Shown here: piece after piece, positions 423 to 39,471 of the stretch
Layout: the number at the start of each line of letters is the position of its first letter
Position numbering within the stretch: the stretch's first letter is position 1
NCBI GenBank assembly: GCA_045127685.1
Contig: JBGVQP010000043.1
Location: forward strand, 242-64,241
DNA from: Candidatus Cryptobacteroides sp.
GTDB lineage: Bacteria > Bacteroidota > Bacteroidia > Bacteroidales > UBA932
Direction: 5' to 3'
Length of the DNA stretch: 64,000 nucleotides
The notes under the pieces: model-generated
Seen by the model: only the letters and a program-made list of their open reading frames with translations
Databases searched by the model: none
What the model was told of the DNA's origin: nothing
Made by a program: the position numbers and the translations under genes

Positions 423-818
423 TTAATATACATAACATATAACCTCACCACCAACATTCAGCTCACGAGCCTCTTTGTCTGTGATGACACCCTTTGATGT
501 AGAAAGGATTGCGATACCGAGTCCGTTAAGAACGCGTGGCATGTTCTCTACATCAGTATATCTACGGAGACCTGGCTTAGACACACGCTCAATCTTCTTG
601 ATTGCGGCAGTCTTGGTCTGCGGATGATACTTGAGAGCGATTTTGATTGTGTTGAAAGGAGCGCCTTCAACTACCTTGTAGCTGAGGATGTATCCCTTCT
701 CGCAAAGGATCTTTGTGAGAGCAACCTTCATCTTTGATGATGGAATCTCAACGACCTTCTTTCCTGCAGCGTACGCGTTACGTACTCTGGTGAGGAAGTC
801 TGCAATTGGATCAGTCAT
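423..818 (-). CDS. rpsH: 30S ribosomal protein S8
   Basis: ORF 423..866 trimmed to the ATG at 818 ([15 protein letters not shown]..., the canonical S8 start). The track start at 866 is TTG. Confidence 0.95.
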
Positions 819-925
819 TTCTTTAATTGTTTTTGTTGAAATCGGTGCATTGCACCCGATATCCAAATTGTTAATAAATAATAATGTATTGTTTCCGTCG
901 CACGACGGCTTTTTTCGGTTATATG

Positions 926-1195
926 TTACCAGCTTGCCTTCTTAACGCCTGGGATCAGACCGTTGCTTGCCATCTCACGGAACTGGATACGGCTGATGCC
1001 GAACATACGCATGTAACCCTTTGGACGTCCAGTGAGAGAACAGCGGTTGTGCATACGGCATGCAGCTGAGTTCTTAGGGAGCTTGTCGAGAGCAGCCCAG
1101 TCACCTGCTTCCTTGAGAGCCTGTCTCTTAGCGGCGTACTTTGCAACCAATTTCGCGCGTTTTACTTCGCGGGCTTTCATTGATTCTTTTGCCAT
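926..1195 (-). CDS. rpsN: 30S ribosomal protein S14
   Basis: 89 aa, [20 protein letters not shown]...[12 protein letters not shown]14 signature and operon position. Confidence 0.95.
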
Positions 1196-1210
1196 CTTGT
1201 TCTCGTTTAA

Positions 1211-1807
1211 TTAGTTGTTATTCTTTTTGAAAGGCAGACCGAATGCCTTGAGAAGCGCGTGAGCCTCTGCGTCGGTCTTAGCTGTAGTCACGAAAGTGAT
1301 CTCCATTCCGAGGATCTTGCTGATCTTGTCGATATCGATCTCAGGGAAGATGATCTGCTCCTTGATACCGAGAGTGTAGTTACCCTTTCCGTCCATCTTC
1401 TCAGAGATACCGTTGAAGTCTCTGATTCGTGGAAGAGAAACACGGATAAGTCTCTCAAGGAACTCATACATCTTCACGTCGCGAAGTGTAACCTTTGTTC
1501 CGATAGGCATACCTCTACGAAGTTTGAAGTTAGAGATATCCTTTCTTGAGTGAGTTACCACTGCCTTCTGGCCAGTGATGATAGAAAGCTCCTGTGCTGC
1601 TGTCTCTACAAGCTTCTTGTCGCCAGTTGCATCGCCTACACCCTCGTTGATAGTGATCTTGACGAGCTTAGGGCACTGCATCACTGTAGTATAACCGAAC
1701 TGCTTCATGAGCTCAGGAACGATCTGCTCCTTATATACGGTCTTAAGAGACGGTACGTATGTAGCAGGCACTGCCTGGGCTGCTGCTGTTGTATTCTTCT
1801 TTGCCAT
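1211..1807 (-). CDS. rplE: 50S ribosomal protein L5
   Basis: 198 aa with the L5 core (KITINEGVG...FRGMPIG-like region). The start overlaps the rplX stop (TAATG). Confidence 0.95.
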
Positions 1808-2124
1808 TACTTAATCTCCTCTCCAGATTTTTTAGCATAACGTACGAGCTTGCCATCTACCACCTTGCGGCCGATCTTTGTAGGAGCTCCTGTCTTAGGA
1901 TCCACAACCTGAAGGTTTGAGATGTGAACGCCTGCTTCCTGTTTAACAATACCACCCTGAGGATGCTTAGGGCTTGGTTTAGTATGCTTGCTTACGATGT
2001 TTACTCCCTCAACGATAGCACGATCCTTTGATGGGATAACCTCAAGCACCTTACCGGTCTTTCCTTTGTCATTACCGGCGTTTACATAGACTGTGTCGCC
2101 TTTCTTGATATGTAACTTCTTCAT
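1807..2124 (-). CDS. rplX: 50S ribosomal protein L24
   Basis: 105 aa, [29 protein letters not shown] (KOW motif). Operon position. Confidence 0.95.
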
Positions 2125-2136
2125 GATGTCTGAAAA

Positions 2137-2502
2137 TTAAAGGACCTCTGGTGCCAGTGAAACAATCTTCATGTAGTTCTCGCGAAGCTCTCTTGCAACA
2201 GGGCCGAAGATACGAGTACCTTTAACCTCACCTGCATTGTTGAGAAGTACGCAAGCATTGTCATCGAAGCGGATGTAAGATCCATCTGCGCGACGGATTT
2301 CCTTCTTAGTGCGGACTACGACAGCCTTTGATACTGAGCCCTTCTTAGCGTCACCGCCAGGGATTGCGCTCTTTACTGCAACGACGATCTTGTCGCCCAC
2401 TCTAGCATAACGGCGGCGGGTACCACCCAGAACACGGATACAAAGAACCTCCTTTGCACCGCTGTTGTCTGCCACCTGTAAACGTGATTCCTGCTGTATC
2501 AT
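2137..2502 (-). CDS. rplN: 50S ribosomal protein L14
   Basis: 121 aa, [27 protein letters not shown], the canonical L14. Confidence 0.97.
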
Positions 2503-2504
2503 TG

Positions 2505-2759
2505 TTACTTAACTTTTTCTACGATTTCTACTAATCTCCAGTTCTTTGTCTTGCTGAGCGGACGAGTCTCCATGATGCGTACTGTATCACCTACGCTGCA
2601 CTCGTTCTTCTCATCGTGAGCTACGAACTTTGTGGTCTTCTTTACGAACTTGCCGTACATAGGGTGTTTCTCTTTTCTTTCAACGGCAACTACGATAGAC
2701 TTGTCCATCTTGTTGCTGACCACAACACCTATTCTTTCTTTACGAAGATTTCTTTCCAT
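2505..2759 (-). CDS. rpsQ: 30S ribosomal protein S17
   Basis: 84 aa, [33 protein letters not shown], an S17 signature. Confidence 0.95.
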
Positions 2760-2772
2760 GAGAATTCAATTT

Positions 2773-2967
2773 TTAGTTCTGTGACTCTTTTTCAGCAAGG
2801 ATAGTCATCATACGGGCGATGTCCCTTCTTGCCTTTGCAACTTTTGAAGTGTCCTCTAATGGAGAGATAGTGTGATTGATCTTCATAGTGTCGAGATTTG
2901 CCTTCTCGAGCTCGATACGCTCACGGATGTCAGCGACCGACATTTCACGAATTTCTGATGCTTTCAT
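2773..2967 (-). CDS. rpmC: 50S ribosomal protein L29
   Basis: 64 aa, helical and charged (MKASEIREMSVADIRERIELEK). Lies between rplP and rpsQ. Confidence 0.9.
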   Translation of the reverse strand: MKASEIREMSVADIRERIELEKANLDTMKINHTISPLEDTSKVAKARRDIARMMTILAEKESQN

Positions 2968-2984
2968 TGTCTTTCTCCATTAAA

Positions 2985-3404
2985 TTATTCTACATAATCT
3001 CTACGTACCACGAACTTCGTAGTCACAGGAAGTTTCTGAGCTCCCAGACGAAGTGCCTCTCTTGCGATATCGAGTGCAACACCCTCCACCTCAATGAGGA
3101 TACGACCTGGAGTCACAGGGCATACGAATCCCTCCGGATTACCCTTACCTTTACCCATACGAACTTCGGCCGGCTTCTTAGTGTAAGGCTTGTCAGGGAA
3201 GATTCTGATCCAGATCTTACCCTCACGCTTCATGTAACGTGATACAGCCTGACGTGCAGCCTCGATCTGACGGCCTGTAAGCCAGCAGTTCTCAAGGGTC
3301 TTGATGCCGAAAGAGCCAAATGCAAGCTGGTTTCCTCTCTGTGAGAGACCTTTCATGCGGCCTTTCTGCTGCCTTCTGAATTTTGTTTTCTTTGGTTGTA
3401 ACAT
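2985..3404 (-). CDS. rplP: 50S ribosomal protein L16
   Basis: 139 aa, [19 protein letters not shown]..., the canonical L16 N-terminus. Confidence 0.97.
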
Positions 3405-3492
3405 TGCTTTATTACTTTATAAATTTTTCGTAATTCCGTTAACTTATTGAGTATCAGCTGGTTGGGCAGAGTGGTCCTCAATTAACGGGTTG

Positions 3493-3500
3493 CAAAGGTA
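3493..3500 (-). promoter_or_regulatory. Bacteroidetes -7 box TACCTTTG (TAnnTTTG) upstream of rplP
   Basis: The reverse complement of caaaggta at 3493..3500 matches the TAnnTTTG consensus of Bacteroidetes primary-sigma promoters. It lies about 88 nt upstream of the rplP ATG. Confidence 0.5.
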
Positions 3501-3713
3501 GTAAAAATTTTTGAATTGCAAACACTTTTTGCAAAAATTTCACACATTTTCGACCGTAGTTTTTGAATGCTAAATAGCGTGTTTTCATGCAGTTAAGAAA
3601 CCTGTTGAAAAATTCTTTCGTTCATTTTGGACATTTGCATTTCGGGAGTAAATGACGACCGGATTTCTGCTCTTCTTATGTCGTTGCGGGCCCCTGGAAC
3701 GGTTATCGTTTAC

Positions 3714-4152
3714 TGTCCATGAAAAGAGGCAATTTGATGGACAGAAACAGATATTCCGGCACCCCATCCACAGAAAGGACCGTTTTCATGGACGGAGGGC
3801 AGACTTTGAAGGTCCCGTCCACAAAAAGGGGCAGTTTCGTTGATGAACCGGCATTTTTGTGAGCGCCGTCCACAAAATTGCGGGTTTTCGTGGACAGGCA
3901 AGGCATTTTGCTGTCACCATCCACGAAAAGGGGTGGTTTCATGGACGGAGGGCAGATTTTGAAGGTCCCGTCCACAAAAAGGGGAAGTTTCGTGGATGAA
4001 CCGGCATTTTTGTGAGCGCCGTCCACGAAATCGCTGGTTTTCGTGGACAGGCAAGGCATTTTGCCGTCACCATCCACGAAAAGGGGTGGTTTCATGGACG
4101 GAGGGCAGATTTTGAAGGTCCCGTCCACAAAATCGCGGGTTTTCGTGGATGG
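3714..4152. repeat. Array of 9 palindromic hairpin (REP-like) repeats, 51-bp period, 153-bp super-period
   Basis: Units start at 3714, 3764, 3815, 3866, 3917, 3968, 4019, 4070 and 4121. Consensus CCGTCCAYRAAA-N6-9-TTTYRTGGAYGG, for example ccgtccacgaaatcgctggttttcgtggacagg at 4019..4051. The inter-hairpin spacers are also repeated every 153 bp. Confidence 0.95.
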
Positions 4153-4281
4153 GACAAAGATTATTGGACGGAAAGGGTTGTCAGACAGGATAAAGTTAGT
4201 ATATTTGAGCGTCTATGAACGGGTTCTGTTCGGCAGGTCGAGGGGCAGACGGGATTGCAGGGACGCCAAAACACGACATAT

Positions 4282-5220
4282 ATGAAGAAGGATTATTGCG
4301 CTCTGAGTTTTTCGGAGAAAGAGAGGGATTGCGAAAGAACGTTTGAGGAGAACGGGCCATACTGGCACCTTTACACAGACGGGACCCGGATGCAGGACAT
4401 ATTCTGCTGCGAGGAGGATTTCGCAACAGGAATGTGGACACTTGCAGGAGCGGCACACCAGCAGAAAGATGTGCGGATTCTGACTTTCCAAATAATGAAT
4501 AATCACCTGCATAAGATATTAGCAGGAAGCAAGGAAGGCGGAATAGAAATGTTCGCATCGTTCGAAGCAAGGCTCCGGCGTTCTCTCGCAAAAACAGGCC
4601 GGGCTATAGACTGGAGCCGTTTCAAGATGGAGATTCTACCCATAAACGACCTGAAAGCGCTCCGTAACGAAATCATATATGTAAATCGTAACGCTTTTGT
4701 AGCCAATGCCGCGTACACCCCGGAATCTTACCCATGGGGCGGCGGATGCGCATATTTCAACGCATGGACGGGCCACCTGCGCACATCACGATTAGGCGAC
4801 CTGAAAGTTGCGACACAAAGAGAACTTCTACACTTGAGAGATGTTGCACCATACGCCGAACTGCGCGAAATCGACATGATGCCTTTCATTCCGTCCTTCT
4901 GCGACATACGGCTCGGTGAAAACATGTTCCGAGACGCACGCAGTTACTTCAATTCACTCACACGCAATGCAGAAGCATTCAGCCAGATAGCATCCCGGCT
5001 AAAGGACACCGTTTTTCTGACCGACGAAGAACTGTTCGCCGTGATGAGCGTATATATCAATAAGGAATACTCCATCAAGAGTTCCGCCCAGTTGAACGGA
5101 GAACAGAAAATCTCCGTCGCCCGTCATCTGCACTTTGGCTATAACGCCTCCAACCAGCAACTCAGGCGACTTCTTCGCCTGGACCCCACAATTCTGGAAG
5201 AACTTTTCCCGCAAGGATAG
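4282..5220 (+). CDS. REP-associated tyrosine transposase (RAYT)-like protein, IS200/IS605 Y1 HUH superfamily
   Basis: ORF 4255..5220 (TTG) trimmed to the ATG at 4282. It has an HUH-type motif, IMNNHLHKIL, and a downstream Tyr motif, EIIYVNRNAFVANAAYTPESYPWGG, resembling the RAYT YxxxNP...YPWSS region. It is flanked by hairpin repeats. No terminal inverted repeats of a classical IS were seen. Confidence 0.65.
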   Translation: MKKDYCALSFSEKERDCERTFEENGPYWHLYTDGTRMQDIFCCEEDFATGMWTLAGAAHQQKDVRILTFQIMNNHLHKILAGSKEGGIEMFASFEARLRRSLAKTGRAIDWSRFKMEILPINDLKALRNEIIYVNRNAFVANAAYTPESYPWGGGCAYFNAWTGHLRTSRLGDLKVATQRELLHLRDVAPYAELREIDMMPFIPSFCDIRLGENMFRDARSYFNSLTRNAEAFSQIASRLKDTVFLTDEELFAVMSVYINKEYSIKSSAQLNGEQKISVARHLHFGYNASNQQLRRLLRLDPTILEELFPQG

Positions 5221-5243
5221 TCCGGCCATCTTTCACTAGCGTC

Positions 5244-5428
5244 CCGTCCACAAAAAGGGCATGTTTCGTGGACGGAGATCGGGGATCGCGTGCTTCATCC
5301 ACAAAAAGAGCTGTTTTCATGGATGACAGGTGCATTCTGATAAGTCTGTCCACAAAAAGACACGATTTCGTGGACAGAAACAGAGGTTTGGGCAACCCGT
5401 CCACAGAAACTGGGGTTTTTATGGATGG
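5244..5428. repeat. Array of 4 hairpin (REP-like) repeats of the same family
   Basis: Units at 5244..5275, 5296..5335, 5346..5387 and 5397..5428, for example ccgtccacaaaaagggcatgtttcgtggacgg. Spacing is about 51 bp. Confidence 0.9.
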
Positions 5429-5464
5429 CGGGCCTATTTGATGAACACCACGAAATCGAATACA

Positions 5465-5983
5465 TTAATTTCGTTTCGACTCATCAATAAGCATGAATAT
5501 TTCAGAAAAGCGCTGATGAAGTTTTGTCCACTTGTTGGCTGCCATTGTATATGACAACGTGGACTTGTTTGTGTAAACAACCACTGTCGGTGCCTGATCT
5601 GCAGTCATCGCCGATTTGACCGCCTGATACGGGAAAGGGCAATCACAACGATGTGCCCAAAGTTTTTTATCTTTTTCTTTATAAATCGAAGCGACATCAT
5701 CACAAAGGAATCGCTTTCCATTAGAGACAAGGGCTACAGAGTCAACACGGACTAATGTCGTTTCATATATGGTCATCTTGACAGAGGCGGTATCCTTTGT
5801 CGAAAGATGCGTGATGTCATAACTAAGTTCTGCCTTACTGTCGGCAGAAGAAAACTGAATCGGGCGGATAAAATACAGATATCCCTCCGAACTATGGCGC
5901 ATAACATACATATCTTCTGTTTTTTGCGCAAACACAGAAGTAACCGATAAGATACAGAATACACCTACAAGAATTCGTTTCAT
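5465..5983 (-). CDS. hypothetical secreted protein
   Basis: ORF 5465..6025 trimmed to the ATG at 5983. Signal peptide MKRILVGVFCILSVTSVFAQ. No family recognised. Confidence 0.6.
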   Translation of the reverse strand: MKRILVGVFCILSVTSVFAQKTEDMYVMRHSSEGYLYFIRPIQFSSADSKAELSYDITHLSTKDTASVKMTIYETTLVRVDSVALVSNGKRFLCDDVASIYKEKDKKLWAHRCDCPFPYQAVKSAMTADQAPTVVVYTNKSTLSYTMAANKWTKLHQRFSEIFMLIDESKRN

Positions 5984-6051
5984 GGGAATAAAAAAGAGGG
6001 TGACTAAAAAGCCAAAACAACTCATTAGTCACCCTCTGATATGTTTAGAAA

Positions 6052-6363
6052 TTAGTTGCCGTATACGGTATAAGTTGTTGTAGTATAGAGACCGAGGATG
6101 CTCCAAACCTTCTTGTCAACATGGCTGATCTTAGTAATACCAGCATTCTTAGCAGCTTTCTGAACACCTGCATCACCAAGTGCTACAGCGCCGAGGTAAT
6201 TAACGATTGTTGCCTCACCAACCTTAGAACCGAGTGAGTTTGATGTTACCTGACTTGGCTCTACGGTATCATTGTAGAGCATACCAGAACCGAGAACACC
6301 ACAGCTTGACACACCCATAGTGAGTGCAAGCGCACATGCTACAGAGAAAAATAATCTTTTCAT
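6052..6363 (-). CDS. small lipoprotein, TRL-like family
   Basis: ORF trimmed to the ATG at 6363. MKRLFFSVACALALTMGVSSC lipobox. The Gly/Thr-rich body ending in TTTYTVYGN resembles Bacteroides TRL-like proteins. Confidence 0.6.
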   Translation of the reverse strand: MKRLFFSVACALALTMGVSSCGVLGSGMLYNDTVEPSQVTSNSLGSKVGEATIVNYLGAVALGDAGVQKAAKNAGITKISHVDKKVWSILGLYTTTTYTVYGN

Positions 6364-6395
6364 AATATAAATAATTAAGTGGTTTATAATGAGAG

Positions 6396-6403
6396 CAAAT
6401 ATA
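6396..6403 (-). promoter_or_regulatory. -7 box TATATTTG for the TRL-like gene
   Basis: The reverse complement of caaatata matches TAnnTTTG, 32 nt upstream of the ATG at 6363. Confidence 0.45.
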
Positions 6404-6514
6404 CTACACTCTTTCATAAAAACAAAAGTTTTGTGTTTTTTTATTCTCTATACCAAAACTTCAAACACCCCGCCTATCAGACCGAAGTGGGACATATATA
6501 TTCCTTAGATTGTG

Positions 6515-6542: not shown

Positions 6543-7514
6543 ATGTGGCTTATATTCGCATTCGTATCCGCGACTTTTCTCGGATTTTATGATACTTCAA
6601 AGAAGGCTGCCCTAAGGGACAACGCCGTGCTGCCGGTGCTATTTCTCAACACTGTGTTCTCTACACTGATATTCTCTCCGTTCCTGATAGACCACCTGAC
6701 AGGCGGCGCATGGTTTGGCGGCACCTCACTAGATACAACACCATTTGACTGCAGTAAACAAATATCTGACATCCAGAAATTCACTGCAATCAATAACTTA
6801 AGCGCTGTACACCCAAATCTGTGCGCCCACCTGCTTATGATCCTGAAGGCCTTCATCGTACTATCCTCATGGATTTTCGGATATTTCGGTCTGAAGCATC
6901 TGCCGCTGACTCTGGTGGGGCCTATCAACGCGACCCGTCCCGTACTGATACTTGTAGGAGCGATGCTGATCTTCGGAGAAAGACTGAACGCGTGGCAATG
7001 GACCGGAGTCCTGCTGGCGATACTTTCGATATATATGATGAGCCGGGCGGGAAAGAAGGAGAATATAGACTTCAAAAGCAACAAGTGGGTATGGTGCGTT
7101 GCCGGTGCAACAATCATGGGTGCAGTAAGCGGACTCTATGACAAGTACATCATGAAGTCGTTAAGTCCGATGTTCGTACAAAGCTGGTTCAACTTCTATC
7201 AAATGGTCATCATGTGCATAATCTGTGGCGCACTGTGGTATCCGAAACGCCACCAGAGCACTCCTTTCAGGTGGAACTGGGCCATTCCGCTCATATCCAT
7301 ATTCATCTGCATCGGCGACTTTGCATACTTCAAATCGCTTAATGACCCCGAATCAATGATTTCTGTTGTTTCGCTCGTGCGACGCAGTTCCGTGATTGTG
7401 TCATTCGCCTGCGCAGCCTTCATCTTCAAGGAGCGCAACCTGAAGGCCAAAGCCATAGACCTCGCCCTCGTCCTTCTCGGAATGGCATTCATATGGATAG
7501 GAACGGTAAAATGA
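6543..7514 (+). CDS. EamA/DMT-superfamily membrane transporter
   Basis: About 10 predicted TM helices with a two-half repeat architecture. N-terminus MWLIFAFVSATFLGFYDTSKK is typical of EamA-like proteins. Confidence 0.7.
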   Translation: MWLIFAFVSATFLGFYDTSKKAALRDNAVLPVLFLNTVFSTLIFSPFLIDHLTGGAWFGGTSLDTTPFDCSKQISDIQKFTAINNLSAVHPNLCAHLLMILKAFIVLSSWIFGYFGLKHLPLTLVGPINATRPVLILVGAMLIFGERLNAWQWTGVLLAILSIYMMSRAGKKENIDFKSNKWVWCVAGATIMGAVSGLYDKYIMKSLSPMFVQSWFNFYQMVIMCIICGALWYPKRHQSTPFRWNWAIPLISIFICIGDFAYFKSLNDPESMISVVSLVRRSSVIVSFACAAFIFKERNLKAKAIDLALVLLGMAFIWIGTVK

Positions 7515-26281: not shown

Positions 26282-26368
26282 CGGTGAGAGCGGGATTCGA
26301 ACCCGCGGTACGGTTACCCGTACGTCAGTTTAGCAAACTGGTGGTTTCAGCCACTCACCCATCTCACC
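26282..26368 (-). tRNA. tRNA-Ser (anticodon GCT)
   Basis: The reverse strand reads GGTGAGATGGGTGAGTGGCTGAAACCACCAGTTTGCTAAACTG...GCGGGTTCGAATCCCGCTCTCACCG. It shows a 7-bp acceptor stem, an anticodon loop TTGCTAA, a long variable arm and a GGTTCGAATCC T-loop. No CCA is encoded. Confidence 0.9.
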
Positions 26369-34206: not shown

Positions 34207-34369
34207 CTCATGAAAACATAAAAAAGAGAAAAACATAAAATAAAGAAATTAATTTTCGGTCTGAGCCGGCAAACCATTGCATTTGCTCTTGACAATTGGG
34301 AACTTTACAGGAGGAGGACAGCGGACGGCAGCCATGAATATTTTCATTAACCTTTTAAATGTAATATTT

Positions 34370-35176
34370 ATGGCTAAAATTCAAGTAAAAGAGTCTGAGA
34401 TAACAGTCCTCAGCATCAATGAAAATGATTACATTTCATTGACAGACATCGCAAAACACAAGAGCGATGATCCATTTATCGTCATTAACAACTGGATGCG
34501 TAATCGCAACACTATCGAATACCTTGGAATGTGGGAGACTATTTTCAATCCAGATTTTAAACCTATCGAATTCGATAGGTTTAAAAGGGACGCAGGTCTC
34601 AATGCATTCACCTTGTCTCCACAGAAATGGGTAACCGCCACAGGTGCAATCGGCATTATAACACGTTCAGGACGCTATGGAGGCACATTCGCACATAAGG
34701 ATATAGCCTTCAAGTTCGCAAGTTGGATTTCAGTGGAGTTTGAATTATATATGGTAAAGGAATTCCAGCGCCTAAAGGAACAGGAACAATCGCAAATCGG
34801 ATGGACCGCCAAACGCGAACTTGCTAAAATCAACTACCACATCCACACCAGTGCAGTCTGCCGACACCTCATTCCTCAAAAAGTCACTGCCGAGCAGACC
34901 CACCTCATATATGCGTCCGAGGCCGACGTACTCAATGTCGCCCTGTTCGGAATGACTGCAAAACAATGGCGTGACAGCAACCCGGACCTCGATGGGAATA
35001 TCCGGGACCATGCATCCATCAACCAGCTCATCTGCCTGTCCAATTTGGAAAGCATGAACTCTGTGCTGATTGAAAGCGGACTTGCCCAACATGACCGCCT
35101 CATTAAGTTGAACGAAATGGCCATACACCAAATGGAGATTCTATCGAGCAACGGGAAAAGGGAACTTTTGAAATAG
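34370..35176 (+). CDS. KilA-N domain-containing DNA-binding protein
   Basis: ORF trimmed to the ATG at 34370. MAKIQVKESEITVLSINENDYISLTDIAKHK...GRYGGTFAHKDIAFKFASWIS matches the common Bacteroides KilA-N family. Confidence 0.75.
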   Translation: MAKIQVKESEITVLSINENDYISLTDIAKHKSDDPFIVINNWMRNRNTIEYLGMWETIFNPDFKPIEFDRFKRDAGLNAFTLSPQKWVTATGAIGIITRSGRYGGTFAHKDIAFKFASWISVEFELYMVKEFQRLKEQEQSQIGWTAKRELAKINYHIHTSAVCRHLIPQKVTAEQTHLIYASEADVLNVALFGMTAKQWRDSNPDLDGNIRDHASINQLICLSNLESMNSVLIESGLAQHDRLIKLNEMAIHQMEILSSNGKRELLK

Positions 35177-35270
35177 AGCGACATCTAGATGACCACGAAA
35201 AGGAAATCGACTTCTTTGTCCGCACTTCCCTACCGCCGGTAGAAGGTGTCTCCGTACATATTGCCTCCTT

Positions 35271-35404
35271 CCGTCCATGAAAAGGGACGATTTCGTGGAC
35301 GGAGGGCGGTTTTCAGGATTCCGTCCACAGAAACAGGGATTTTCATGGATGGAGGCACAATTTCATGCTGTCCGTCCATGAAAATGCGGGTTTTCGTGGA
35401 CAGG
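35271..35404. repeat. Array of 3 hairpin repeats of the same family as 3714..4152
   Basis: Units at 35271..35302, 35321..35352 and 35372..35404, for example ccgtccatgaaaagggacgatttcgtggacgg. Spacing is 50-51 bp, and the spacer agggcggttttcaggatt is related to agggcagattttgaaggtc in the first array. Confidence 0.9.
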
Positions 35405-35649: not shown

Positions 35650-38600
35650 ATGTCATTCGTCCATCTTCATGTCCACACACAGTATTCCATCCTTGACGGT
35701 CAGGCATCAATCGCAAGCCTTTTCGAGCGTGCGAAAGAGCTTGAAATGCCTGCACTTGCCATCACCGACCATGGCAACATGTATGGTGTCAAGGAGTTTA
35801 TGAAGGTGGCCAAGAAGTACCCTGATATCAAGCCTATCATCGGTTGTGAGGTGTATGTGACAAGGCATTATGACCATAAGTTGAAGGACAAGGACCATAG
35901 GTCTTACTTCCACCTTATCCTGCTGGCAAAGGACTATACCGGATACAAGAACCTGATGAAGATTGTTTCTACGGGTCATATCGAGGGCAAGTACTATGAC
36001 AAGCCGAGGGTAAGCCATGAGATCATTGAGCAGCATGCGGAAGGACTCGTATGCTGCTCTGCATGTATCGCAGGGGAAATTCCGAGAGCTATCATCGCTG
36101 GTGATATGGAGGCTGCGGAAAAGGCCATCCAGTGGCACAAGAGGGTGTTCGGAGAGGATTTCTATCTGGAAGTGCAGCAGCACAAGACAGAGATTCCGGG
36201 CCAGTCACAGGAGGTTTACGAGAGACAGCTCATCTCCAACGAAGGAATATTCGAACTGGCAGAAAAGACCGGAACAAAGGTTGTGGCTACCAATGACGTG
36301 CATTTCACGCGCAAGGAGGACGGTCCGGCTCATGACCGCCTGATCTGCCTCACCACCAACGCCAACCTTGACGACCCTAACCGTCTGCGATATACCCAGC
36401 AGGAGTACCTCAAGAGCGAGGACGAAATGCTGGATATGTTCTACAAGCATCCTGAAACCATCAGCAACACGCTTGAGGTCGCAGAAAAAATCACATCATT
36501 CAAGATTGACAAGGACCCGATCCTTCCGAAGTTCGACCTTCCGGAAGAGTTCCTTGCAGACATTGACACACATCTTGAAAAATACAGGCACATCATCGAC
36601 GAAGGCCGCTGCGACAAGAGCGGAAACGAGCGAGGAGAGGAATTCTGCAAGTCTGTTGCATTCCTCTGCCATCTGACATTCAAGGGAGCTGATGAAAGAT
36701 ATGGCAACTCGCTATATGAACCATATAACGGTGGAGACTCCCCTGCTGAACGTATCGAGTTCGAGCTCAAGACTATCTGCAAGATGGGATTCCCCGACTA
36801 CTTCCTTATCGTGCAGGACTTCATCGCAGCAGCACGCAGTGAAGGCATTTCTGTTGGTCCCGGCCGTGGATCAGCAGCAGGATCGGCTGTTGCCTACTGC
36901 TTGAAGATTACCAACATAGACCCTATCAAATATGACCTGCTCTTTGAGCGATTCCTCAACCCTGACCGTATCAACATGCCCGATGTCGATATCGACTTTG
37001 ACGACGACGGCCGTTACCGAGTGTTCCAGTACATCGAGGAGAAATACGGCAAGGAGCAGATTTCCCATGTGATCACATACGGAACCATGGCTGCAAAATC
37101 TGCAATCAAGGACGTTGCACGCGTGAGCAACCTGCCTATTCCGGAGTCCAACAGGCTTACCAAGATGATTCCGGACAAGCCGATCATCCAGATGGAGGAC
37201 GCAGAAGATCCGTTCAATGAGGGAGATACACTTGAGGAAGGACAAAAACTCATCACGAAGGTAGTAGAAGAGGATGACCCTGAAAATCCTGGACAGAAAA
37301 TCAAGGTTGAGAAGAAGTTCAAGAAATATAAGAAGGAAGTTTCATATAAACCCAAGCTCAAGAACTGCTACAAACTCATTCCTGAGCTTAAGGAAGAGCT
37401 TGCAAACGGCACGGAACTGAACAAGGAAGTGCTGAACTATGCCGGCAAACTGGAAGGCTGTGTACGTCAGACAGGAGTTCATGCATGCGCAATGATCATC
37501 GGACGCAGCAACCTTACAGAATATATTCCGATCTGTGTCGCTAACGATAAGCTCACGGGCGAAGAAGTATGGGTATCGCAGTATGACGGACATTATATCG
37601 AAGAGGTAGGCATGCTCAAGATGGACTTCCTCGGTCTGCGTACCCTGTCCATCATCAAGGAATGCCAGGCTAACATCAAGAAGCGTTTCGGCATCGAATT
37701 CGACATAGAGAAGATTCCTATCGACGACCCTGAGACATACGCTCTCTACAGCCGTGGAGATACAACCAGCGTGTTCCAGTTCGAATCCGGAGGTATGAAG
37801 GAGTATCTTATAAAACTCCAGCCTACCCGTTTTGAGGACCTCATCGCCATGAACGCCCTTTATCGTCCGGGCCCTATGGACTACATTCCTGACTTTGTTG
37901 ACCGTAAGCAGGGTCGTAAGCCTATTGAATACGACCTTCCGGCAATGGAAGAAATATTGAAGGATACATACGGCATCACAGTATATCAGGAGCAGGTGAT
38001 GCTTTTGTCAAGAAAACTTGCAGACTTTACAAGAGGTGAGGCTGATACCCTGCGTAAAGCGATGGGAAAGAAGATGCTCGATCTTCTAAACTCATTGAAA
38101 GACAAGTTTATAGCAGGTGGAACAAAGAACGGACATCCTCAGGAAATCCTTGAGAGAATCTGGAAGGACTGGGTCAAGTTCGCATCATACGCCTTCAACA
38201 AGTCCCATGCTACATGTTATGCATGGGTAAGTTACCAGACAGGTTATCTCAAAGCCCACTACCCGGCAGAGTTCCAGGCAGCCAACCTGACCAAGAATCT
38301 CTCCAACATGGATGAGATCAAGAAGATCATGGATGACTGCAAGAAGAACGGCATCAAGGTCCTCAACCCTGATATAAACGAGTCAGAATCGAAGTTTACC
38401 GTCAACAAAAACGGAGAAATACGCTTCGGACTCGGCGGTATCAAGGGATTCGGAGAAAATATCGTCAAGGCTATACTTGCAGACAGGGAAGAAAACGGGC
38501 CGTATGCAGACATCTATGACTTCGTCGAGAGAATGTCCGGAACAGTCAACAGAAAGGCATTCGAGTCACTTCTGCATTCGGGTGCATTCGATAGTTTCGG

Positions 38601-39471
38601 CATCCAGAGGAAGCAGTTCATGACACCTTGCAAAGGCGGCGATACATTTATTGATGCCATCCTTAAATATGGTGAACTCTATAAGAAGGACACGATGGAC
38701 AGCGCCGTTTCCCTTTTCGGAGAAGCAGAGGAACTTAAGCCGGAAAGACCGGAAATTCCGCCGATGATCGGTGAGGAAGACCTTCTGGCAAAACTCCATC
38801 TTGAAAAGGAACTGGTCGGAATGTATCTTTCGTCGCACCCCCTGGACCAGTATAGGTTTGAAATGGATAATTTCGCTTCACACCAATTAACTGAAATCGA
38901 TGGGCTAGTTGCAGAGTGCCAGGAAGCCAAAAGCAAGAAGAAGGTTTCTGTCGCAGGATTTGTGATATCCAGTCAGACAATGTTGGGCAAGAGTGGAAAA
39001 CCTTGGTCTAAAACCGTCATAGAAGACTTCAGCGGCAGTTATGAACTTGCGTTCTTCGGCAAGGACCACGAAGCATATATGAATTATATGCAGCTGAACA
39101 ACGCCTTGTACATTGAAGCAGAAATCGATGAAAAATACTATATAAAGCCGGAAGAAAGAGCAAAAGGAAAGACATCTGACTATGCTTTCAAGGTGAAGAA
39201 GATCATGCTGCTTGGCAACGTGACGGAAACATATCTGAAGGGATTCTCAATCAGCATCACCACAACGATGCTCTCCCCTGATTTCAGGAAGAAACTGGTG
39301 GAACTACTGAAGGAACATAAGGGAAAGATTCCTTTGACGATGTACCTTTATGACCCTGAAAAGGGCTGGAACATAGAATTCCTGGCAAGAAAATTCACGG
39401 TGGCTGTAACAGACCAACTTATAAGCGACCTGCACAAGATGGGAATAATGTATAATGTCATTAAAAAGTAA
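35650..39471 (+). CDS. dnaE: DNA polymerase III alpha subunit
   Basis: 1273 aa. PHP domain start FVHLHVHTQYSILDG. Palm and fingers motifs (MPDVDIDF, GLLKMDFLGL, FQFES, RPGPM). C-terminal OB fold. Confidence 0.97.
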   Translation: MSFVHLHVHTQYSILDGQASIASLFERAKELEMPALAITDHGNMYGVKEFMKVAKKYPDIKPIIGCEVYVTRHYDHKLKDKDHRSYFHLILLAKDYTGYKNLMKIVSTGHIEGKYYDKPRVSHEIIEQHAEGLVCCSACIAGEIPRAIIAGDMEAAEKAIQWHKRVFGEDFYLEVQQHKTEIPGQSQEVYERQLISNEGIFELAEKTGTKVVATNDVHFTRKEDGPAHDRLICLTTNANLDDPNRLRYTQQEYLKSEDEMLDMFYKHPETISNTLEVAEKITSFKIDKDPILPKFDLPEEFLADIDTHLEKYRHIIDEGRCDKSGNERGEEFCKSVAFLCHLTFKGADERYGNSLYEPYNGGDSPAERIEFELKTICKMGFPDYFLIVQDFIAAARSEGISVGPGRGSAAGSAVAYCLKITNIDPIKYDLLFERFLNPDRINMPDVDIDFDDDGRYRVFQYIEEKYGKEQISHVITYGTMAAKSAIKDVARVSNLPIPESNRLTKMIPDKPIIQMEDAEDPFNEGDTLEEGQKLITKVVEEDDPENPGQKIKVEKKFKKYKKEVSYKPKLKNCYKLIPELKEELANGTELNKEVLNYAGKLEGCVRQTGVHACAMIIGRSNLTEYIPICVANDKLTGEEVWVSQYDGHYIEEVGMLKMDFLGLRTLSIIKECQANIKKRFGIEFDIEKIPIDDPETYALYSRGDTTSVFQFESGGMKEYLIKLQPTRFEDLIAMNALYRPGPMDYIPDFVDRKQGRKPIEYDLPAMEEILKDTYGITVYQEQVMLLSRKLADFTRGEADTLRKAMGKKMLDLLNSLKDKFIAGGTKNGHPQEILERIWKDWVKFASYAFNKSHATCYAWVSYQTGYLKAHYPAEFQAANLTKNLSNMDEIKKIMDDCKKNGIKVLNPDINESESKFTVNKNGEIRFGLGGIKGFGENIVKAILADREENGPYADIYDFVERMSGTVNRKAFESLLHSGAFDSFGIQRKQFMTPCKGGDTFIDAILKYGELYKKDTMDSAVSLFGEAEELKPERPEIPPMIGEEDLLAKLHLEKELVGMYLSSHPLDQYRFEMDNFASHQLTEIDGLVAECQEAKSKKKVSVAGFVISSQTMLGKSGKPWSKTVIEDFSGSYELAFFGKDHEAYMNYMQLNNALYIEAEIDEKYYIKPEERAKGKTSDYAFKVKKIMLLGNVTETYLKGFSISITTTMLSPDFRKKLVELLKEHKGKIPLTMYLYDPEKGWNIEFLARKFTVAVTDQLISDLHKMGIMYNVIKK

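Follow-up and report, generated by a model that had tools for sequence, protein, structure and literature searches.

A gene for a predicted RAYT-like enzyme lies between palindrome arrays of 51-bp period in a Bacteroidales genome

What is a gene for a possible hairpin-processing transposase doing between two strictly phased arrays of palindromes in a Bacteroidales genome? The question was raised by a window of 64,000 nucleotides, i.e. the whole stretch of DNA analysed here (Candidatus Cryptobacteroides sp., assembly GCA_045127685.1, contig JBGVQP010000043.1, positions 242 to 64,241, forward strand), in which a preliminary description made from the sequence alone had reported a REP-associated tyrosine transposase (RAYT)-like gene between 9 upstream and 4 downstream hairpins spaced every 51 bp, and had interpreted the ensemble as a domesticated transposase/repeat system of an undescribed REP family. 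RAYT/REP systems have been studied almost only in Proteobacteria, and their mechanism of spread as well as their benefit to the host remain open.

On re-examination, what had been observed proved real. The CDS at 4282-5220 (+) encodes 312 aa and starts MKKDY, as its homologues do, the TTG at 4255 being only an upstream extension. The upstream array (3712-4153, +) comprises 9 head-to-tail units of 51 bp, each consisting of a 28-nt palindrome (GTCCAYRAAA-N8-TTTYRTGGAC, extended to about 13-bp arms by YCC...GGR) plus a 23-bp spacer, with palindromes starting at 3715, 3766, 3817, 3868, 3919, 3970, 4021, 4072 and 4123. The downstream array (5243-5429, +) comprises 4 units starting at 5246, 5297, 5348 and 5399, again each exactly 51 bp apart. 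A third array (35270-35404, +) of 3 units, starting at 35273, 35323 and 35374 (spacings of 50 and 51 bp), has no such gene beside it and lies in the intergenic region between a KilA-N-domain gene (34277-35176) and dnaE (35650-39471), which brings the total to the 16 copies initially counted. Dinucleotide-preserving shuffles gave 0.00-0.03 expected matches against 14-32 observed. Tandem repeat analysis (TRF) reported the 51-bp period as well as a 153-bp (3-unit) superperiod at 3784-4132 (+), with 2.3 copies at 96% identity, i.e. a recent block expansion. The phasing does not extend across the gene, since the distances from the last upstream to the first downstream palindrome are 1123, 1184 and 1045 bp in the loci compared.

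As for orientation, the loops had been described as G-rich on the + strand in nearly all copies, with both arrays facing the same way, and indeed the loop G-minus-C count is positive in 15 of 16 copies and zero in one. Besides, related spacers occur in the same orientation on both sides of the gene (unit 3715, AGAAACAGATATTCCGGCACCCC, against unit 5348, AGAAACAGAGGTTTGGGCAACCC), so the two arrays are head-to-tail rather than inverted. The claim that spacers are conserved requires one qualification, as they are conserved only within an array or genome, in the form of three alternating types that are recent duplicates, whereas between genomes the spacers and loops differ freely while the arms and the period are kept.

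Regarding the protein, absence of a significant PF01797 (Y1_Tnp) hit had been named in advance as grounds for rejecting the assignment, and this condition is formally fulfilled, since the window protein has no Pfam hit even at E <= 1. The NCBIfam model NF047646 (REP_Tyr_transpos, equivalog) gives the only weak hit, at 17.2 bits against a cut-off of 80 (E 0.0035, residues 38-152). The assignment therefore rests on structure, on invariant motifs and on weak Y1_Tnp hits in 24 of 63 relatives (best E 3e-6). The AlphaFold2 model is confident (pLDDT 95.3, pTM 0.90), and a Foldseek search with the full-length model retrieved as best PDB match 4er8, the E. coli RAYT bound to its REP hairpin (E 7.7e-4, probability 1.0, 143 columns), followed by the ISDra2 and IS608 TnpA structures, the top 12 being all Y1 enzymes (4er8, 2xm3, 2xo6, 2xqc, 2xma and 2a6o, each with probability 1.0). 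Sequence searches of the PDB gave only a marginal alignment to the ISDra2 HUH strand, the profile aligning MsnHlHl to MPDHVHL. The predicted N-terminal Y1 HUH domain covers residues 1-165 (4282-4776, +). The HUH motif lies within NNHLH at residues 73-77 (H75-L76-H77, 4504-4512, +, with H75 at 4504-4506 and H77 at 4510-4512), inside an invariant MxNHxH, and IIYVNRNAF contains Y133 (4678-4680), so that the catalytic-Tyr motif Y133-V-N-R136-N137 (4678-4692, +) sits on helix 124-141 and corresponds to the YIxxNP motif of class-2 Y1 enzymes (PMC6006769). H75, H77, Y133, R136 and N137 are invariant in 63 diverse relatives only 28-56% identical to the window protein.

The C-terminal extension, announced at about 140 aa, amounts to 147 aa (residues 166-312, 4777-5217, +), is mostly helical and is conserved across the family. 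The first idea considered was a DnaA-like C-terminus binding the TCCACA core of the arms, by analogy with the Y1 enzymes carrying Bac_DnaA_C domains, but it is not supported: none of Bac_DnaA_C, HTH_23 or HTH_28 appears among the Pfam hits of 63 members at E <= 0.1, and a separate high-confidence model of residues 166-312 has no significant neighbour among solved structures and no DnaA domain IV match by Foldseek. Only the last ~40 residues look faintly like a three-helix HTH, with non-significant matches (best E 1.6, probabilities 0.2-0.6) to the DeoR DNA-binding domain on its operator, Hin and sigma region 4.

The family to which this protein belongs is large, with 843 clusters at 50% identity and 734 database proteins reached by the family profile at E <= 1e-10, about 310 aa throughout, and it is essentially unannotated, named members being "hypothetical protein" from Bacteroidales MAGs, of gut and rumen origin. 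In all 14 relatives' loci with enough flanking DNA (nine distinct proteins), the gene is adjacent to palindromes of the form X6-AAAA-loop-TTTT-X6'. Numbering the relatives' loci with the prefix L, palindromes flank the gene on both sides in L002-L007, L062, L085, L133 and L135, as in the window, while L001, L060, L130-L132, L134 and L136 show them on one side only, and L128 and L129 were too short to judge. The outer arm differs between protein lineages, namely GTCCAY in the window, L003-L007, L060, L062 and L085, GGCCAG in L001, RTCCGT in L133 and GTCCGK in L132, GGGTGC in L130 and L131, GGCCCGC in L002, GTCCTTG in L135, TGGGAAC in L136 and TTGCAG in L134, that is about ten classes tracking protein lineages. 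The period is 50-52 bp in all of them except L130, where an N gap interrupts the array. L001 and L003 lie at the same chromosomal site, after a comF-like gene, and their proteins are 75% identical, yet all three upstream units have switched both arms from GTCCAY to GGCCAG. As for array length, the window has 9+4 units against 4+3 in relatives with an 89%-identical protein at the same site, the gain including the 153-bp block.

Whether the palindromes also occur away from the gene, and whether the gene is present in many identical copies with defined ends, had both been put forward beforehand as possible refutations. On the first point, the palindromes are dispersed: besides the gene-less array 30 kb away in the window, the window's palindrome type occurs in metagenomes mostly as intergenic arrays of 1-7 units with no family gene nearby, 151 of about 170 spacings being exactly 51 bp. 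Among 18 metagenome arrays with at least 1.1 kb on both sides, 16 lack the gene, and 66 of 73 arrays are not inside a long ORF. On the second point, one copy of the gene is present in the 64-kb window, and the synteny rplP, gene, EamA, ksgA is conserved between the window and the four places shown for one relative, P0003 (L004-L007, from four samples; further places were collapsed as similar), so this is not a multi-context IS. Such synteny supports single-copy status but, no complete genome having been examined, the number of copies per genome and their vertical inheritance are left undecided by these data.

The interpretation as a RAYT-like gene with its own dispersed repeats is thus supported, and literature searches by motif sequence and by topic found no description of this family or its arrays. 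In the explanation held here as more likely than not, though with moderate confidence only, the locus is a REPtron-like system, whose gene encodes a catalytically intact, very divergent class-2 Y1 HUH enzyme (RAYT/TnpA-REP type) carrying an extra helical domain. The enzyme would recognise the 28-nt palindromes as hairpins in transiently single-stranded DNA, reading mainly the GC-rich outer 6 bp at the foot of the stem, and would then cut and rejoin DNA next to them through Y133, so that units or blocks of units would be copied, lost or replaced in steps of about 51 nt and new arrays seeded in other intergenic regions. The analysis itself establishes the fold and the invariant catalytic residues, the adjacency of gene and arrays, the change of arm sequence with protein lineage, the dispersed gene-less arrays and the rapid, block-wise turnover of arrays between close relatives, whereas action on ssDNA, the cleavage chemistry, mobilisation of the repeats by the enzyme and its driving of array turnover are inferred, as is the idea that the near-constant period reflects a geometric requirement, e.g. 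an oligomer engaging neighbouring palindromes at a fixed register. Characterised RAYTs bind ssDNA REP hairpins and cleave beside them (PMC8266576); here neither binding nor cleavage was assayed, and only folding energies were computed, the palindromes folding as ssDNA hairpins on either strand at -7.5 to -11.5 kcal/mol (z -2.7 to -5.2). Other data fit this view less well. There is no GTAG or GT[AG]G guide tetranucleotide, whose role is described in PMC8266576, at the foot of the hairpin in the window, where units read YCC-GTCCAYRAAA...TTTYRTGGAC-GGR, nor in the other arm classes, so the known rule for choosing the cleavage site cannot be transferred. Furthermore, the two arms behave largely as independent half-sites, 38% of distinct units being non-Watson-Crick at stem position 6 and 48% at position 7, with modest covariation at position 6 (odds ratio 2.9) and none at position 7, which is less than expected if a perfect hairpin were required. 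Copy-and-paste of units alone does not explain why the period stays at 50-52 bp in lineages whose arms, loops and spacers have all changed, and no empty-site or insertion polymorphism of a gene-less array was documented.

A rival considered unlikely overall is a duplex-binding nucleoprotein array, in which the protein, as a dimer using its C-terminal domain, would bind the palindromes as double-stranded inverted half-sites (centres about 22 bp apart) recurring every ~51 bp, about five helical turns, so that bound dimers line up and cooperate, possibly after cruciform extrusion. The arrays would then serve as operators, insulators or chromosome-architecture elements, and HUH nicking would be secondary, as with Rep proteins that bind duplex iterons and nick nearby. 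In favour of this view are the period held while spacers and loops diverge freely, even between arm classes, the nearly independent variation of the arms, the faint HTH-like matches, and the position of the upstream array just upstream of TATATTTG (4200-4207, +), which lies between the last upstream palindrome and the ATG and matches the Bacteroides -7 promoter consensus TAnnTTTG; the upstream array would thus sit upstream of the gene's promoter, which is an inference from sequence only. In the comparison of L001 with L003, both domains differ (70% and 80% identity), so neither can be excluded as the reader of the arms. Conversely, every characterised Y1 HUH enzyme acts on ssDNA hairpins and the closest structure is a RAYT-hairpin complex, a purely DNA-binding role would not keep the HUH and Tyr residues invariant, 51 bp is 4.9 turns of relaxed B-DNA and not an integer, and binding alone does not explain concerted switches of arm class or block-wise expansions.

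Alternatively, the arrays could work at the RNA level, or as generic host REP-like elements such as mRNA 3'-end stabilisers, attenuators or recombination hot spots, expanding by replication slippage or unequal crossing-over, with the enzyme only a passenger or an occasional user. Arrays are indeed intergenic, mostly between co-directional genes, the 153-bp block duplication could equally arise by unequal recombination, array sizes fall off roughly geometrically, and REPs in E. coli have reported 3'-UTR roles (10.64898/2026.03.23.713779). This reading appears improbable, however, as the arm sequence changes with the protein lineage across about ten classes with the gene embedded in its own class, arm class switched in concert at an orthologous site, no U/T tract follows the stems on either strand (the flanks are RRR/YYY), so these are not canonical intrinsic terminators, the arrays have no Rfam match (only a tRNA was found in the window), and slippage does not explain a period conserved across unrelated unit sequences.

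An ordinary IS200/IS605-type insertion sequence, a CRISPR-like array or a protein-coding 17-residue repeat (51 = 17 codons) is very improbable, despite the Y1 fold, the regular repeat-spacer layout and a 141-aa ORF running through the upstream array (3703-4128, minus strand). Against an IS, the same single locus and synteny appear in all places shown for P0003, arrays replace distinct left and right ends, there is no tnpB, and the Tyr motif is YxNRN instead of the class-1 YxxxQ. The CRISPR-like regularity is only superficial, since repeats within an array differ in arms and loops, spacers within an array are related to each other, the neighbours are rplP, EamA, KilA-N and dnaE with no adjacent cas genes, and a scan of viral contigs with the palindrome gave no hits. 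Searches with PADLOC, PHROGs and BFVD found nothing either, so there is no sign of a defence-system or phage origin. Against coding, the arrays are palindromic and intergenic, occur in either orientation and with 1-9 units, and spacings of 50 or 52 bp would break any reading frame.

Among known systems, the closest are the REPtrons, i.e. RAYT (TnpA-REP) genes flanked by REP/BIME or REPIN repeats and encoding class-2 Y1 HUH enzymes of subclasses 2.2, 2.4 and 2.5 (Quentin et al., 2018; PMC6006769). Common to both are the Y1 HUH fold, closest to 4er8, the class-2 motifs (NHxH, and a Tyr followed at +4 by Asn, several relatives having RNP), a gene embedded between cognate palindromes that are also dispersed in intergenic regions, a repeat sequence changing with the protein, and, in the loci compared, a gene at one conserved locus rather than in many IS-like copies. 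What differs is the absence of the GTAG guide, the near-perfect 28-nt palindromes with a constant inner AAAA/TTTT and a lineage-specific outer 6 bp, their head-to-tail arrangement in arrays of 1-9 units at a fixed 50-52 bp period and not as inverted pairs (REPINs) or alternating BIMEs, a protein of about 310 aa with a conserved 147-aa C-terminal domain against about 150-190 aa for known RAYTs, scores below the Pfam and NCBIfam thresholds, and uncultured Bacteroidales as hosts. Subclass 2.6 (RAYT group 5) also has Bacteroidetes hosts, a NH[LIV]H motif and "atypical secondary structures" flanking the gene, which lack GTAG and have copies elsewhere in the genome; its proteins are nevertheless about 130 aa shorter (about 179 aa), match the Y1 profiles used in that study and have YIH[QN]NP, and no phased tandem arrays are described in the parts of PMC6006769 consulted, the branching of the present family relative to subclass 2.6 having been left outside the analysis. 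Subclass 2.1.2 (TIRYTs) shares a class-2 Y1 core followed by a long, conserved, helical C-terminal extension that may bind DNA, but those enzymes have no REPs nearby, or have long terminal inverted repeats with GGGG[AT][CG]A[CG], and their C-termini match Bac_DnaA_C, HTH_23 or HTH_28 (PMC6006769). The class-1 IS200/IS605 TnpA (IS608, ISDra2), which share the HUH/Tyr fold, recognise ssDNA hairpins and cleave at fixed distances from them, which provides a precedent for a ruler-like geometry, although the present gene is not multi-copy in the loci compared and its hairpins form arrays.

Only as a tentative possibility, the 50-52 bp period may be a built-in ruler: an oligomer of this Y1 enzyme, using its family-specific C-terminal domain, would engage two neighbouring palindromes at a fixed register and cut and paste DNA in quanta of one unit, the system then building, homogenising and re-seeding phased tandem arrays by itself, with an arm specificity that would be re-programmable, as the roughly ten co-diverged classes suggest. 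That would be a mode of repeat propagation distinct from REPIN/BIME mobilisation, and would offer a natural series of matched enzyme-hairpin pairs for working out a Y1 recognition code. Beyond this possibility, the enzyme-repeat partnership is unusually easy to read in this family, with the gene embedded in its own repeats, quantised arrays and recognition arms diversified alongside the protein, which gives matched pairs for testing how a Y1 enzyme reads a hairpin without a GTAG guide, as well as a clear structural puzzle in the ~51-bp register and the new C-terminal domain, both of which remain unexplained. It also gives a practical explanation for assembly breaks and rearrangement points in Bacteroidales MAGs, since many contigs end at these arrays and the ribosomal-protein operon is interrupted at this locus.

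Of note, orienting all metagenome units with an iterative weight matrix collapsed to a symmetric consensus and was abandoned. In a strand-specific hairpin test, comparing G.T against A.C at non-Watson-Crick positions, the counts are strongly over-dispersed within arrays (117 against 61 expected), but units in one array share descent and the sign does not track loop G-richness (16 against 12), so this comparison does not settle the strand either way. In the window, the minus strand has more G.T pairs (27 against 11).

The preliminary description of the region proved accurate. The CDS at 4282-5220 (+) encodes 312 aa beginning with MKKDY, the same start as in its ~310-aa homologues, and lies between copies of a 28-nt palindrome, GTCCAYRAAA-N8-TTTYRTGGAC, which start at 3715, 3766, 3817, 3868, 3919, 3970, 4021, 4072 and 4123 upstream and at 5246, 5297, 5348 and 5399 downstream, every copy being exactly 51 bp after the previous one, while flanking YCC/GGR often extends the palindrome to 13-bp arms. 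The occurrence of the motif away from the gene had been proposed beforehand as a criterion, and three further copies were indeed found at 35273, 35323 and 35374, between a KilA-N-domain gene and dnaE. Shuffled sequence gives only 0.00-0.03 expected matches. In addition, TRF finds the 51-bp period together with a 153-bp three-unit superperiod at 96% identity. All 16 copies face the same way, the loop G-minus-C count on the + strand being positive in 15 and zero in one, and related spacers occur in the same orientation on both sides of the gene. As ssDNA, the hairpins fold on either strand at -7.5 to -11.5 kcal/mol, but they are followed by purines rather than T runs on both strands and are thus not canonical intrinsic terminators. 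A 141-aa ORF at 3703-4128 (minus strand) runs through the upstream array, only because the period of 51 bp corresponds to 17 codons and the units lack stop codons in that frame; gene callers may annotate such ORFs as spurious proteins, and small ORFs of this kind are called next to the gene in L132 and L133, two loci of relatives (the prefix L denotes throughout the loci compared with the window).

Regarding the protein, a Pfam match had been set in advance as a test of the transposase assignment, and the search gave nothing, even at E <= 1, while the RAYT model of NCBIfam (NF047646) is the top hit but scores 17 bits against a cut-off of 80. The family is nevertheless large and coherent, with 715 database proteins at E <= 1e-3 and 843 clusters at 50% identity (154 at E <= 1e-30), the full-length members being about 300-330 aa. 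In an alignment of 63 members that are 28-56% identical to the window protein, M72, H75 and H77 (MxNHxH) as well as Y133, R136 and N137 (YxNRN) are invariant, and 24 of the 63 hit Pfam Y1_Tnp weakly. An AlphaFold model built on this alignment is confident (pLDDT 95.3, pTM 0.90) and its best PDB match is 4er8, the E. coli REP-associated tyrosine transposase bound to a REP hairpin, followed by the ISDra2 and IS608 TnpA structures. The motifs are of the class-2 (TnpA-REP) type as defined by Quentin et al. (PMC6006769), namely NHxH and an Asn at Tyr+4, with Pro at +5 in some members. In the model, residues 166-312 form a conserved, mostly helical domain that packs on the core; modelled alone (pLDDT 92.6), this domain has no significant PDB neighbour and only its last ~40 residues resemble small three-helix HTH domains, at probabilities of 0.2-0.6. 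The initial idea of a DnaA domain IV-like C-terminus reading the TCCACA core was therefore not supported.

The partnership of gene and array is a property of the family. Relatives with 89% protein identity (L004-L007) sit at the same place (rplP, gene, EamA, further genes, ksgA) with 4 upstream and 3 downstream units. More distant members, each in a different genomic context, are again flanked by palindromes of the form X6-AAAA-loop-TTTT-X6' at a 50-52 bp period, but the outer arm changes with the protein. The arm is GTCCAY in L003, L060, L062 and L085 (~65-70% protein identity to the window), GGCCAG in L001 (70%), RTCCGT in L133 (59%), GTCCGK in L132 (51%), GGGTGC in L130 and L131 (~40%), TGGGAAC in L136 (39%), GGCCCGC-type in L002 (38%), GTCCTTG with a period of 52 in L135 (~34%) and TTGCAG with a spacing of 50 in L134 (~30%). 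In L130, a run of about 100 N (a scaffold gap, at 2700-2800) lies inside the downstream array and, as a large share of family members are known only from contigs of 1-3 kb that end near the gene, the arrays evidently break short-read assemblies. While L001 and L003 are at the same chromosomal site and their proteins are 75% identical, all three upstream units have both arms switched, which independent point mutations are very unlikely to produce and which points to active replacement or homogenisation of units. Inside an otherwise GTCCAT-type array of seven units in locus L091, one unit (2218-2245) has a hybrid palindrome with a left arm GGCCAG and a right arm CATGGAC, which may be an intermediate between two arm classes. 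Besides, arrays change quickly between close relatives, as the window gained internal units, including the 153-bp block, and its downstream units are not recognisably orthologous to those of L004.

Beyond the gene locus, a metagenome scan for the palindrome of the window returned at least 120 loci. Only about five of the 120 retrieved carry the gene and, among arrays with at least 1.1 kb on both sides, 16 of 18 lack it. The arrays have 1-9 units, 66 of 73 are not inside a long ORF, and 151 of about 170 neighbour spacings are exactly 51 bp, with 10 more at 50 or 52 bp. From these loci, it could be estimated, as a rough figure only, that there are roughly tens of arrays per gene copy. No copies were found in viral contigs. 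Loops and spacers differ almost completely between arrays from different sources, while the arms and the register are kept.

The reading of the locus as a transposase associated with its own repeats, put forward in the preliminary description, is supported, and the best-supported interpretation is a REPtron-like system, that is a catalytically intact Y1 enzyme acting on its cognate palindromes. By homology, these would be bound as ssDNA hairpins and cut beside the stem through the Tyr, as shown for the E. coli, Stenotrophomonas and Marinomonas RAYTs (PMC8266576), and such activity would account for the block-wise gain, loss and replacement of units and for the seeding of arrays that lack the gene. 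While the invariant residues, the modelled fold, the adjacency of gene and arrays, the change of arm with the protein, the dispersed arrays and their rapid turnover come directly from the analysis, the action on ssDNA, the cleavage and the role of the enzyme in this turnover are inferred, binding and cleavage not having been assayed here. Three features are not explained by what is known of RAYTs, namely the absence of a GTAG-type guide, the head-to-tail arrangement of the units and a 50-52 bp register that survives complete divergence of arms, loops and spacers; this register is therefore inferred to be imposed by geometry, either by an oligomer bridging neighbouring hairpins or by helical phasing on duplex DNA. 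The computational analysis did not discriminate ssDNA from duplex action, as the strand test comparing G.T with A.C is confounded by the shared descent of units. In addition, the arms behave largely as independent half-sites, 38% and 48% of distinct units being non-Watson-Crick at stem positions 6 and 7, respectively, which keeps a duplex-binding model alive.

In function and organisation, this system is closest to REPtrons, but it lacks three defining or customary features of that family, namely a match above the curated HMM thresholds, the GTAG foot and the inverted REPIN/BIME organisation, and it adds a new domain. It is neither the Bacteroidetes subclass 2.6 as described (~179 aa) nor the HTH-bearing subclass 2.1.2, which has no REPs and a Pfam-detectable HTH. 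Named database members are all "hypothetical protein [Bacteroidales bacterium]", one JGI entry being called RayT, and no description was found in the literature searched, subscription journals excepted. What is known already is the REPtron kind of system, of which the present locus is a variation, of real interest to those working on HUH enzymes and bacterial repeats.

Regarding the genomic surroundings, the ribosomal-protein cluster rpsH-rpsN-rplE-rplX-rplN-rpsQ-rpmC-rplP (423-3404, minus strand; gene names were assigned from the ORF translations and Pfam labels) ends at rplP (2985-3404), and the gene normally upstream of it, rpsC, with the rest of the S10 operon, is missing; in its place come about 310 bp of non-coding DNA (3405-3714) and then the hairpin array. 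As the same break occurs in the relatives L004-L006, this highly conserved operon is split exactly at this locus in the lineage. On the other side, two small genes lie on the minus strand between the downstream array and the EamA gene (5465-6417), one at 5465-6025 with a signal-peptide-like N-terminus and no Pfam hit and the other at 6052-6417, which is TRL-like (PF13146); both are absent from the syntenic loci L004-L007, so that there is an insertion/deletion difference directly next to the array. Genes of the phage-repressor or antirepressor type occur near arrays in two loci, i.e. Virulence_RhuM, twice, in L003 (1014-2804) and the KilA-N gene in the window (34277-35176), which is directly followed by the array lacking the family gene. 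In the metagenome contig L136 (1-2778), the family gene lies next to a Cas12a (Cpf1) gene and an HTH_3/Peptidase_M78 gene, which is probably coincidental. Downstream of the L001 gene (6980-7620 and 9594-9691), there are different short tandem repeats, with periods of 18, 19 and 22, and GC-rich small hairpins (ATGCCCGG...CCGGGCAT) around a small ORF (~7130-7440), whose function was not examined, constituting a second and unrelated repeat family in that genome. Finally, a single tRNA gene at 26282-26368 (minus strand) is the only Rfam match in the window.
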